Source: Octopus vulgaris
Taxonomy: Eukaryota
Assembly: GCA_951406725.2 (NCBI GenBank)
Contig: OX597817.1
Coordinates: 175,894,001-175,958,000, forward strand
Reading direction: 5' to 3'
DNA: 64,000 nt
Positions 2,023 to 60,973 of the stretch are shown here, piece by piece (position 1 is the stretch's first letter; each line of letters begins with the position of its first letter). A model generated the notes under the pieces. It worked only from the letters and a program-made list of their open reading frames with translations, was not told where the DNA came from and made no database searches. The position numbers were made by a program, and so were the translations under genes.

Positions 2023-2390
2023 GTGATGTAAATATGCCATTTGAATATGGCTAACCCCTAAGGGTGGATGCTACTGTAGTTTTTAGCCCCAGGGAAGACA
2101 TCTCCTCCAGCTGGCTATAGACACACTTTCTGTGCCCTATCTGTATTTGCAAAGGGAAGCCATACTTCCCGTCTTCAACTTATGATACACTCGGACCCGA
2201 GTTTCAAGGTATTGACCTATCATCAGCGTGTGACAATCACAGTTGTCGATAGGAAGGAGGTTCTCTTTACAAATACGGGCACAGAAAGTATGTCTATAGC
2301 CAGCTGGAGGAGATGTCTTCCTGGGGCTAAAAACTACAGTAGCATCCACCCTTAGGGGTTAGCCATATTCAAATGGCATATTTACATCAC
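2023..2390. mobile_element. Inverted pair of PLE pseudo-LTR-like sequences (about 125-bp arms) with a hammerhead ribozyme between the arms
   Basis: 2023-2150 is the near-perfect reverse complement of 2265-2390; a (TA)n tract separates it from the PLE ORF; related copy at 20757-20908. Confidence 0.8.
2186..2232 (-). ncRNA. Minimal type I hammerhead ribozyme
   Basis: Minus strand reads CACACG-CUGAUGA-U-AGGU-CAAU-ACCU-U-GAAA-C-UCGG-G-UC-CGAGUG: core, stem II, short stem III, GUC site and stem I (5/6 pairs). Confidence 0.8.
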
Positions 2391-3892
2391 GATGTGTTTC
2401 TGCTACTGTTGATAACTCACTCTGATATTTATCACTCTCTCTCTCTCTCTCTCTCTCTCTATATATATATATATATATATATATATATATATATATATAT
2501 ATATATATATATATATATATGTATGTATGTATGTATGTATGTATATAGTTTATTTACAATGCGTGTTTTCATTTATTATTAACAGAACGCAACACACAGC
2601 AGACGTTTATTAACATATTGAGTTTACATATACTCTGTGTGACTCTACTCTTTCACCTTTTCTTTCTCGCCATGTTACTTCTATTTCTAGTCGGTCCACG
2701 TTCCCGTTTCTCTCTCTCTCTCTCTCTCTCTCTCTCTCTCTCTATCTCTCTCTCTCTCTCTCTCTTGCTCTCTCTCCCTTTCTCCTCTGCATGCTTCTGT
2801 CACGTGACCTGTGGCCAGTTTTCCTTCATTTTCTCTTTCTCACAGTTTTTCATAATTCTGTTTCTCACAAAACAACTTTCTCCGTCTTGCTATTTACTGT
2901 TGTCTCTATATCTCTAAGTATTTTTCTAAGCGTTACCCACCACTCTTGTCTTTTGGCCGCAAGGCCGTATTTTTCTCGTTTCGCCTTTGCCTATCTTCTT
3001 GAATTACGCTTTTTAACTTTCGTATGTCCATTCTATGTTGTTTTGTTTGCTTGAGACCCGATTGCCTGCGTCTTTCGCAGGCACCTCCAAGATGGGAAAC
3101 CCTTCAGTCTTATCATTAAAGATATAAAACTGAGAATCACCATTTTGGTTGATAACTAATGAAGAATTGGGGACCCTCTGTGTCTTATACGTATACGTTT
3201 TTTATCTGTCGTTGTATATTTCTTTTGCTCGTAGGTTTTAACAAGTCAACATTGACTTCTCCTGTCTCTGGCACTCGATTTTCTGAATTTGCGCTCTAAC
3301 GAATTTTTCCACCGTCTAGGCTTAAAAAGGCCCTCAATGTTGGTTCCTTGTCCTGTTTTTATTCTTTATGTGTTCTGTATTTTTATTTGTATTGCTTTTA
3401 CGTCCTCTTCTTGTCACTTTTTTTCTTTTTTTACCCCTCTGCAAAAGAATTTTATTTAATTCATTTTGCAGGAAGGATTGCTTCGGCTGGATCGTGTTCT
3501 GCCCTTACCCTCGAAACACGCAATGAGTCGAACCAGGGGCAGCTGATGAAGGGGAATATTCCTTGTATTGTTTGTCTTGTACTCTGTTTTTTCGTTGTTA
3601 AAAAAAGTCCGTTTCCTTGTTTGATTTTATGTTTTCGTTTCTCGTTGTGTTCTACGTTTATTTGTGGTGTCCTGTACTCATATATATATATGTATATACT
3701 CTCTGAAAGGTATGTACGTATATATATGTATGCATATATTTTATTTGTTAAATTGTTATTATATATATGTGTATATATATATATATATATACACACACAC
3801 ACACACACACACACACACACACACACACACACACACACACACACACACACACATATATATATACATATATATATATATATATATATGTATAT

Positions 3893-4299
3893 ACTCTCTT
3901 TTACTCTCATTTACTTGTTTCAGTCATTTGACTGCGGCCATGCTGGAGCACCGCCTTTAATCGAGCAACTCGACACCGGGACTTATTATTTTGTAAGCCC
4001 AGTACTTATTCTATCGGTCTCTTTAGTCGAACCGCTAAGTAACGGAGACATAAATACACCAGCATCGGTTGTCAAGCAATGCTAGGGGGGACAAACACAG
4101 ACACACAAACACACACACGCATATATATATATACATATATACGACGGGCTTCTTTCAGTTTCCGTCTACCAAATCCACTCACAAGGCTTTGGTCGGCCCG
4201 AGGCTATAGTAGAAGACACTTGCCCAAGGTGCCATCCAGTGGGACTGAACCCGGAACCATGTGGTTGGTAAAGAAGCTACTTACCACACAGCCACTCAT
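3893..4299 (-). mobile_element. tRNA-derived SINE family A
   Basis: Matches 23792-24330 and other copies; head with A/B-box-like GTGGCTGTGTGGT...GGTTCAGTCCC, internal TA/TG tract, tail ..TGACTGAAACAAGTAAA. Confidence 0.85.
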
Positions 4300-4712
4300 A
4301 TGTATGTATATATATATATATATATATATATATATATATGTATGTATGTATATATATGTATATATATATATATATATATATATATATATATATATATATA
4401 TACATATGTATATATATACATATATATATATAAATATATATATATATATATATATATATATATATATATATATATATTTATACATACATATCTATATATA
4501 TACATACATATATATATATTTATATATACACATACATATATATATGTGTATGTCTGTATATGTATGTATAATGCACATATATATGTATGTATATATATAT
4601 ACATACATACATACATACATACATACATACATACATACATACATACATACATACATACATACATACATATACATATACATGCATGTCTGTCTATATATAT
4701 ATTATATATATA
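4300..4712. repeat. Compound (TA)n/(CATA)n microsatellite
   Basis: Direct reading. Confidence 0.95.
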
Positions 4713-57477: not shown

Positions 57478-57845
57478 GAGCACTCCGTCGGTTACGACGA
57501 CGAGGGTTCCAGTTGATCTGATCAACGGAACAGCCTACTCGTGAAATTAACGTGCAAGTGGCTGAGCACTCCACAGACACGTGTACCCTAACGTAGTTCT
57601 CGTGGGGATTCAGCGTGACAAGGCTGGGCCCTTTGAAATACAGGTACAAGAGAAACAGGAAGAAAGAGTGAGAGAAAGTTGTGGTGAAAGAGTACAGCAG
57701 GGTTCGCCACCATCCCCTGTCGGAGCCTCGTGGAACTTTAGGTGTTTTTGCTCAATAAACACTCACAATGTTCTGTCTGGGAATCGAAACCGCGAGCCTA
57801 CGACCGTGAGTCCGCTGCCCTAACCACTAGGCCATTGCACTTCCA
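57478..57845 (-). mobile_element. SINE family C (tail type 3) inserted in a short tandem repeat of about 52 bp
   Basis: Reverse complement of 51543-51920; GCAGTGTAA on both sides. Confidence 0.88.
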
Positions 57846-58974
57846 CATATAGCAGTGTAAACCATTGTTAAATATGGCATCTATAGGAACCCATAGTTTG
57901 AGGTAGGAGTTGGTAGCAGGTCATTACAGATAACCGCGTCACATTGAGCCTCAAAACTTTTCAAAAAGTTTTCAAATTTAATGTGTTTGTCTGTCATTGA
58001 GCACTAAAGTGGAAAAACTGTTAAATTCTGTTGTTACGACATAATTACACTGAAATTGGTTCACAGAAGCTTTGCGAAGCATTTGACGCTGCTTCTGACA
58101 TTTTTGAATTAGCTTTCTTTTATGCCACAGTCATTTATTTAAAATTTTATGTTACGATTTGTTTAATTTAAATATACTTGCAGGCGCAGGCATGGGTGTG
58201 TGGTAAGAAACCTCCGGGTTCAGTACCACTGCGTGGCTCAACTCAACCACATATTTACAAACAGCAGGGGCTCTCGTGACTGAAAAAAAAATCTTGTTAT
58301 GTTAGCGACCGGCTTGGACTCTCTTAAGAAGAACTTAAATAAAACTCAAAGCAAAACATGATGCATACATACATACACAGATACATACATACATACATAC
58401 GTACATACATACATACGTACATACACACATACATACATACATACATAATTGGAAGTAAAACTATTACTTTCTCTAATTATATTATTCGTCCGAGTAAAGA
58501 ATTGGTAAAAAAAATCTATATATATTATTACCTTTTTATTTACCTATTTTAAAATATATTGAAATCATTCAAAATATTTTAATTATATTTTTAAATATAA
58601 TTTACCTATTTTTTAAATATATTTTATCACTAACTCACTCTTCCCGTAAATTGAATATATCTTATTTGTTTAGAAAGAAATAGCCTTATTTTTTTCTTTT
58701 AAGTAACCTTTCTTATACATACGTAAATGATGGTTGTCTACTTGTTAGAAGAGCATGACCATCGCTGACACAAAAGTCAAGAACGAAGGGTGTTAAGTGT
58801 TAAGTGTTAGTAATGCCCGTGCAAGGATTTTAAGTGGAATGCAGCTTTCACAACACCCTAACGACTCTCACTAGCAATACCAAGAAGCCCAAAGACAAAT
58901 AAAGTGCTAGGTATCCGGATCTGGTGAGCAGTGGGTTTTATATATGAGTTAGCCTTCTCCTAGAGGGATGTTAT

Positions 58975-60232
58975 GACATCCATACAAACGAACACACATG
59001 CACGCATACATGCATACATACATACATACATACATACATACATACATACTTATTTACATACATACATACATACATACATACATATTTACATACATACATA
59101 CATATTTACATACATACATACATATATACATACATACATACATACATACATGCATACATACATACATACATACATACATACATACATACATGCATGCATA
59201 CATACATACATACATACATACATACATACTTATTTACATACATACATACATACATACATACATATTTACATACATACATACATATTTACATACATACATA
59301 CATATATACATACATACATACATATATACATACATACATACATACATACATACATACATACATACATGCATGCATACATACATACATACATACATACATA
59401 CATACATACATACATACATACATACATACATACATGCATGCATGCATGCATGCATGCATACATACATACATACATACATACATACATACATACATACATA
59501 CATACATACATACATATATACATACATACATACATACATACATACATACATGCATGCATACATACATACATACATACATACATACATACATACATACATA
59601 CATACATACATACATACATACATACATACATACATACATGCATGCATACATACATACATACATACATATTTACATACATACATACATATATACATACATA
59701 CATACATACATACATACATACATACATACATACATACATACATACATACATACATACATACATACATACATACATACATGCATGCATACATACATACATA
59801 CATACATACATACATACATACATACATACATACATACATACATACATACATACATACATACATACATACATACATACATACGTACATGCATGCATACATA
59901 CATACATATTTACATACATATTTACATACATACATACATACATGCATGCATACATACATACATACATACATATTTACATACATACATACATACATACATA
60001 CATACATACATACATACATACATACATACATACATACATACATACATACATACATACATACATACATACATACATACATACATACATGCATGCATACATA
60101 CATACATACATACATACATACATATTTACATACATACATACATATATACATATATACATACATACATGCATACATACATACATACATACATACATACATA
60201 CATACATACATACATACATACATACATACATA
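58975..60232. repeat. 1.25-kb (CATA)n microsatellite with CATG/TATT variant units
   Basis: Direct reading; 180-bp internal duplication (59041 versus 59221). Confidence 0.97.
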
Positions 60233-60973
60233 CAGGGCCGGATTAAGACTCATAGACGCCCCACGCACTTAAAAGACTTTGGTGCCCCCATATTAATGCA
60301 ATTCAAAATGTAAACAATAATAAACCATACAATATATTTTATTTTTCAAAATGAAACAAAACTAACAGTAAGAAGGAAAATAATGTTTATTTTTGTCTCC
60401 TTCCACGTTATTTATATTTGCAAAGTTTGCTGCTACTTTTTTTAATTGCAAAGTCTTTGATCAGATCCTCACTATGACACCATAAATTCTATAAAATTGT
60501 GTTTCCGATCATATAAACCACTTCAAATAGTATTTTAACAAGTTTAAAGTGATTTCTTTTGTAATGTAAACCATTTACCATTTCTGTGGTGCCCCTTCCT
60601 TCTCTTGATACTCTAAGCACGTGCATATTTTACTTAATGGTTAATCCAGCTCTGTATTTAAGAGATGAGGAAATTATGTACATTATTTACATCATTTACA
60701 ATTGCCGGATATTTGTCCTCATCTTGTTTGTTGTTAACACAATGTTTTTCGGCTGATATACCCTCCAGTCTTCATCAGGTGTCTTGGGGGAAATTTCAAA
60801 CCTGAATAACAACAACATCGAAAAGTACCTTAGGAATGAGAACCCAGGTTCGAAATTTCACCAAGATGAAGGCTGGAGGGCATATCAGCCGAAACGTTGT
60901 GTTAGCAACAAACAAGATGAGGACAAATATCCGTTAAATGTAAATAATGTAAATAAGGGTTAATCCAGCGTTG
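60233..60973. mobile_element. hAT MITE whose right TIR was duplicated by an HHR-palindrome insertion (60655-60953)
   Basis: TIR CAGGGCCGGATTAA; right ends TTAATCCAGCTCTG (to 60654) and TTAATCCAGCGTTG (to 60973); flanks CATACATA / CATGCATA. Confidence 0.72.
60655..60953. mobile_element. Head-to-head inverted pair of HHR-bearing elements
   Basis: Arms about 60676-60805 and 60845-60953; consensus CUGAUGA-A-GGCUG-GAGGGUAUAU-CAGCC-GAAACGUU; the two copies are damaged at different positions. Confidence 0.78.

Follow-up and report, generated by a model that had tools for sequence, protein, structure and literature searches.

How does one genome come to carry inserts of different repeat families that are all built as palindromes with arms of unequal length? 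The question is raised by a stretch of 64,000 nucleotides of Octopus vulgaris DNA (assembly GCA_951406725.2, contig OX597817.1, positions 175,894,001 to 175,958,000 of the forward strand; the whole stretch is called the window here, and positions given without a locus name are its own). A sequence-only reading of the window had picked out seven palindromes, described as pairs of hammerhead ribozyme repeats joined by their 5′ ends, had placed them beside the inverted repeats of Penelope-like elements (PLEs), and had proposed twin priming at microsatellite breaks as their routine route of integration. All seven lie near the places given for them, and six are true two-arm inserts, the palindrome at 50840-50952 being no member of the class. 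Judged from their sequence, the six are non-coding repeats with a hammerhead motif, comprising stubs of PLE pseudo-long terminal repeats (pLTRs) and tandem units of the retrozyme type. The layout itself is already published and ordinary for PLEs, and the families are new but of a known kind. We consider it probable that both 3′ ends of the target are extended on one RNA by a PLE protein, starting from two fixed sites, because the arms end at fixed and differing positions and have rare mutations in common. This mechanism draws on genomic sequence plus in vitro work on another PLE, the Poseidon element of Anolis (PAc). Countable constraints come from family C, which is very young and comprises hundreds of nearly identical units; each of its events can be seen to have two different ends, one haplotype, and independent arm lengths.

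Two-arm inserts of the window

Palindromes were located by comparing the window with itself, and were assigned to families by searching the genome (2.8 Gb, 227 contigs), which is rich in microsatellites; hammerhead cores were called by descriptor or by eye. The six inserts belong to five families (A to E), two of them to family A, as had been supposed for the inserts at 2023 and 20757. In four of the six, the extent first given had omitted a tail, i.e., extra family sequence that is present on exactly one arm in every one of the six.

The family C insert (21183-22654) consists of a left arm with sense on the minus strand (21183-21984; 803 bp, or 1.5 units of a 532/533-bp hammerhead unit, with hammerheads at 21412 and 21945) and a right arm with sense on the plus strand (21984-22654; 671 bp, hammerhead at 22297). 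The arms overlap by 1 nt at the junction, and both termini lie in (TA)n, at register 404 of the unit on the left and register 532 on the right. Family A, found elsewhere in the genome as a 352-bp tandem unit, has one insert at 2023-2434, where the left arm has its sense on the minus strand (core 2226-2220) and its short end at (TA)n (2008-2022), the right arm has its sense on the plus strand and bears a tail of ~44 bp (2391-2434), and the join sits within the family's own imperfect stem. The second family A insert (20700-20909) has its tail on the left arm (20700-20751), adjoining (TA)n, and its short end on the right. The family B insert (7694-8085) is flanked by (TA)n on both sides, with the short end on the left arm, a tail of ~97 bp on the right arm, and variant hammerhead cores at 7787 (minus) and 7895 (plus), while the short and old family D insert (22684-22857) has its tail on the left arm, its short end at (TA)n, and a variant hammerhead-like core, read by eye, at ~22795-22818 (plus). 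The family E insert (60651-60957) has a core at 60778-60772 (minus), a decayed copy of it on the plus strand, and a tail of ~33 bp on the left arm. The earlier observation that arms end at or near (TA)n is borne out by most inserts, but not by this one, which lies outside (TA)n and is flanked by a 12-bp target duplication (60639-60650 and 60958-60969).

The hammerhead sense strand runs from the centre outward in all six inserts. The cores are canonical in family C (three window copies, all outward) and family A, decayed but typical in family E, and variants, by eye, in families B and D. A strict three-stem descriptor recovered family C alone, and Rfam scans returned no hammerhead, only microsatellite-driven miRNA matches. 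No open reading frame (ORF) with reverse transcriptase (RT) and GIY-YIG domains was found within the six inserts.

Orientation and ends across the genome

The family C set comprised 40 distinct loci among the 150 best matches listed, the window locus included, and was made up of 26 two-arm and 14 single-arm loci. All 26 two-arm loci are head-to-head (minus-then-plus), which extends the outward orientation first noticed in the window, and none is tail-to-tail. A listing of the exact motif on contig C1 gave 22 loci, 10 of which have the motif on both strands, again minus-then-plus in 10/10 and tail-to-tail in none; 4 of these 10 also belong to the 26-locus set. Head-to-head and tail-to-tail pairs are therefore far from equally frequent, even if the numbers in unselected sequence are small.

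The two arms also end differently. In 25/25 clean family C pairs (the rearranged locus L093 was excluded), one terminus falls at register 399-404 and its partner at register 526-532; the two end types are distributed over the sides as 13 versus 12, and such a complete complementarity has a probability of 3e-8 under independent and equally used ends. Single-arm copies use either end site (10 and 4), and no short inverted stubs were evident by eye at their 5′ ends, except possibly at L120. Each unit of 532/533 bp carries one hammerhead, and an arm holds up to ~12 units. At L125 (2300-6773) two variants recur jointly every three units in a nine-unit arm, for which a trimeric template or a later duplication is possible.

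The same complementarity was found in family E (14/14) and, scored by eye, in 12/13 scorable loci of family A (after removal of duplicate loci and of L056, which could not be scored; L054 is the exception), in the 4/4 two-arm loci among 30 loci of family B, and in 21/23 loci of family D, none of which is tailed on both sides. Tails measure 33-130 bp across families. An intact PLE, encoding a 781-aa protein with RT and GIY-YIG domains and representing a separate family absent from the window inserts, has 3 two-arm copies among 20 loci, with complementary ends in 3/3. This young element (L330:4639-6981) overlaps an upstream 479-aa frame (L330:3281-4717) by ~78 nt; the overlap lies close to a six-T run and may mark a frameshift or a PLE with two ORFs. 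Its terminal repeat yielded no clear hammerhead. The share of two-arm loci thus varies by family from 3/20 to 26/40. Since many copies are single-armed, two-arm insertion is a common route rather than the sole one.

Inverted repeats in unselected sequence

An unselected sample of 80 evenly spaced 10-kb stretches (800 kb) was scanned for inverted repeats, with arms <35 nt and spacers >1 kb being missed by the scan. It contained 96 inverted repeats, many of which are chance opposite-strand pairs of short interspersed elements (SINEs). A TA tract is touched by 28 of the 96, against 3.4 expected, and in 15 of these 28 a second TA tract lies 15-150 nt past the other arm (background 9.8%). Among the 15 extra pieces so delimited, 9 recur fully and 1 partly together with the arm elsewhere, 2 are of low complexity and 3 were not refound. 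The spacing of TA tracts therefore makes the end rule visible without any family model.

The sample contains ~15 well-supported two-arm inserts, or 31 if candidates are counted, equivalent to one per 25-55 kb, so that the earlier estimate of one hairpin per 10 kb applies locally, to a window that is richer than the genome sample with six in 64 kb, and not to the genome at large. By family, the sample yielded 0 inverted pairs among 44 segments of families A, B, D, F and G, 3 among 22 segments of family E and 1 among 7 of family I, the segment counts being inflated by library entries B and E2, which contain flank sequence. An abundant control repeat occurs in both orientations (3 and 5), and a second one in only one of them (5 and 0). 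The strict hammerhead descriptor gave 12 matches in the 800 kb (0-1 in shuffles), of which 4 fall inside inverted repeats, which cover 7% of bases (p 0.007), and 4/4 point outward; the association of palindromes with hammerheads thus exceeds background.

Arm haplotypes, junctions and target sites

Both arms of an insertion tend to carry the same variants. In family C the arm haplotypes match in 11/11 informative loci, compared with 8/380 cross-locus pairs, and in family A the distance between arms is 0.05 within pairs and 0.45 between them (p 0.0002). No mixing of subfamilies between arms was seen in 11 informative family C loci or in 13 family A pairs. One variant is genome-wide confined to 4 units of one insertion, on both arms, and another has 7/8 of its genome matches in one insertion and the remaining one at a different place, against 558 genome copies of the common allele at the same site of the unit.

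The central junctions show overlaps of 1-6 nt in 22/26 loci, insertions in 4 and blunt joins in 0, with a null in which 53% would have zero overlap. Arm lengths are uncorrelated (rho 0.13), with differences that reach 3.6 kb. In 6/25 family C loci, the window locus among them, they go beyond what a fold-back copy could give: each arm has sequence absent from the other, so these 6 cannot be fold-backs of a first cDNA.

TA tracts are present at most family C ends. In family E, which lies outside them, a target duplication of at least 7 nt was found in 11/14 pairs and in 1/182 cross pairs, and the family C copy at L118, also outside a TA tract, has a 10-bp target duplication. Such duplications point to a staggered endonuclease cut as the event that opens the target, rather than to a spontaneous microsatellite break. 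Of the twin priming first proposed, the priming from both ends is supported, given the lack of tail-to-tail pairs and given complementary ends, microhomology and arm lengths that speak against a simple fold-back; the microsatellite break is not.

A probable mechanism with two primers on one RNA

In the mechanism that we favour, a PLE protein would cut both target strands, and each target 3′ end would start copying at a different fixed site of the same RNA. The protein may act as a dimer whose two active sites sit at the two start sites. Synthesis of the two cDNAs would halt independently, and their 3′ ends would be joined via 1-6 nt of microhomology followed by fill-in, with the loss of one cDNA giving a single-arm copy. 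For the tandem families, the template could be either a concatemer or a self-cleaved monomer circle that is copied repeatedly.

The circular version of this scheme can be put forward only tentatively: a PLE dimer sits on one self-cleaved circular RNA and uses two start sites, so that twin rolling-circle reverse transcription produces multimeric arms that are joined head-to-head. The two polymerases would then chase each other round the circle, each displacing the cDNA of the other. If true, this single mechanism would explain the tandem, the inverted and the tail features of PLE insertions.

Several observations weigh against the extension of both ends on one RNA. A T-run is not the same in the two arms of L091, nor in those of the window locus; at L115 and L119, variant boundaries are shifted by one unit, in opposite directions. 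In family E, arms of the same locus resemble each other no more than arms of different loci do (p 0.20), a comparison that is uninformative because the family is old and has little subfamily structure. Exceptions to the end rule exist at L054 (both ends short, flanks mirrored) and at L225 and L235 (tail absent), and the family loci are best matches, not randomly drawn. Among 30 GIY-YIG loci, family C is linked by sequence to no protein-coding partner, nor was a link of the window families to a GIY-YIG ORF found there. In vitro, the strands showed no difference in start site (PMC11167929). Finally, variants could be shared for other reasons: the templates may have been a pair of RNAs from a single source locus, or one arm may have been converted by the other.

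The first of these, with both ends primed on two separate RNAs of one source locus, one for each subunit of an asymmetric dimer, fits the complementary ends and independent arm lengths, and accounts for the mismatches between units described above for L091, L115, L119 and the window locus. It would require, for the variants private to one insertion and found in every unit of both its arms, a source locus that is absent from the assembly, and it sits poorly with the lack of subfamily mixing (0/11 and 0/13), for which reasons we regard it as unlikely.

Rather less probable still is self-priming or fold-back, in which a hairpin is made first, from antisense RNA or from the first cDNA, and its ends are then trimmed at different sites by the endonuclease. 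Identical haplotypes and microhomology would arise automatically, family A often joins within its own stem, and PMC8557442 attributes the tail to endonuclease resolution. Fold-back after first-strand synthesis is at odds with the 6/25 loci that break its length limit, and with arms that are uncorrelated in length and differ by as much as 3.6 kb, although the observed lengths would also suit a hairpin made beforehand and trimmed at each end. Moreover, by eye, no substitution was seen that each arm carries in a single unit, the two units matching, and PMC11167929 maps the tail in vitro to RT start sites.

An origin of the palindromes after insertion, by inverted duplication, by a further copy landing in the first, or as an artefact of chimeric reads or of the assembly, may be suspected from the mirrored flanks of L054, from error-rich loci such as L109 and from a palindrome at 17511-17971 which shows that non-PLE palindromes form in this genome, but it cannot produce two different fixed ends in 25/25 loci, fails to give target duplications around the whole unit or the absence of tail-to-tail pairs, and does not suit old copies whose arms have diverged mutually, so that for the class as a whole it is largely refuted and very improbable.

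Relation to known systems

In PLEs, head-to-head is the most frequent inverted arrangement (Pen2a_Av of Adineta vaga), for which self-priming on antisense RNA was proposed (PMC3846280). An adjacent inverted copy, a one-sided tail and a (TA)n bias are described in PMC8557442, which states the origin of tandem, inverted and tailed PLE insertions to be unresolved, and the same layout is given in a curation guide (PMC8969392). Minimal hammerheads occur in PLE pLTRs (PMC4209133). The window inserts resemble the insertion units of endonuclease-positive PLEs in having an inverted, 5′-truncated copy at the 5′ end, head-to-head, with a tail that is often one-sided, as well as target duplications, (TA)n or AT-rich targets and a hammerhead in the terminal repeat. 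They differ from these units in being mostly non-coding stubs with tails of 33-130 bp instead of 30-40, in a one-sided tail that is counted here as a near-strict rule across families, and in arms that can both be multimeric.

Tandem hammerhead units are known as retrozymes (PMC7229834; bioRxiv 10.64898/2026.07.22.740005). Families A and C share with non-long terminal repeat retrozymes an organisation in tandem non-coding units, each bearing a single type I hammerhead, the low GC content and the dispersed arrays, and mobilisation by PLE enzymes has been proposed for retrozymes. The arrays of family C, in contrast, diverge from a central junction and have fixed ends. Retrozymes are defined by self-cleavage and circular RNA, whereas families A and C are known here from genomic sequence. 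In the accessible text of these papers, the word "inverted" appears 0 times in PMC7229834, and the preprint has it a single time, within a title of its reference list.

PAc provides a biochemical parallel to copying from both ends. According to PMC11167929, the protein cuts and extends both strands in vitro and has AT-rich targets, a dimer is predicted, and two internal RT start sites bound the tail. That paper derives no inverted pairs and reports the strands not to differ in start site, whereas the genomic rule would need the two ends to start at different sites in each event. In twin priming of LINE-1 (L1; a long interspersed element, LINE), the reciprocal end likewise primes a second reverse transcription of the same RNA, the 5′ part is inverted, the target duplication is retained and junctions show microhomology. 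There, the second primer lands at a variable internal site beside the stop of the first and the two parts barely overlap, being described as non-overlapping in PMC11702581, whereas here the two arms are begun close to one and the same end and the sequence they copy overlaps, so that long palindromes result. With arms that overlap by hundreds to thousands of bases and two fixed ends, the inserts do not fit twin priming of the L1 type, nor do they fit a miniature inverted-repeat or foldback DNA transposon, given the unequal ends and variable junctions of families A-E.

Neither a count of the end rule nor a proposal of twin priming for PLEs was found in a literature search that covered sources other than the supplements of PMC11167929 and PMC8557442 and the Penelope papers of 2005-2008; the available part of a Chlamydomonas mutation-accumulation preprint contains nothing on inverted PLE insertions.

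The palindromes could feed the double-stranded RNA (dsRNA) that is predicted to be abundant in octopus, a candidate link; a lizard Penelope is heavily edited (PMC5625713). Four contig sets, whose RNA nature was only guessed, cover the family C unit, one of the four with a single contig of 563 nt (533 + 30); no A-to-G pattern was readable in them, and they were not used as evidence.

Other features of the window and of the loci

The palindrome at 50855-50952 was rejected as a two-arm insert, being a fixed internal hairpin of an unrelated longer repeat family, at the same place in the family copies, without TA flanks and without a hammerhead. Here and at L194-L213 it forms the central hairpin of a repeat of at least 2 kb with nested inverted segments, and its length differs among copies. 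The palindrome at 17511-17971, which is not among the seven first picked out, was also rejected as an insert of these families, as it occurs once in the genome and has no hammerhead match and no TA flanks; its arms are 158-172 bp long, 33 bp of its spacer reappear at 18470-18502, and it is likely a template-switch inverted duplication.

A decayed PLE RT fragment (886-1908, minus strand; 55% identity over 313 aa to the intact 781-aa protein) ends close to the TA tract into which the 2023 insert is set. Other decayed frames, named by eye, are LINE-like with endonuclease and RT (11501-14263, minus) and mariner-like transposase (26370-27276, plus). No host exon was recognised among the 78 long frames of the window, where short exons would escape. 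Six more hammerhead-like cores of other families lie outside palindromes, at 21008, 25912, 32730, 33331, 33524 and 53795.

In the 800 kb, an abundant SINE-like repeat (window 35821-36244) has 5 close pairs that diverge and 0 that converge; they lie at L284:6366-6926, L290, L297, L302 and L309, and one of them is abutting and has tandem units. This repeat may use a similar insertion route. In a family E copy (L002:1300-1625), the hammerhead end is preceded by a tRNA-like head and a run of (AAT)n, and at L060, L118, L139 and L180 PLE-type inserts are nested in, or abut the ends of, other PLE-type inserts.

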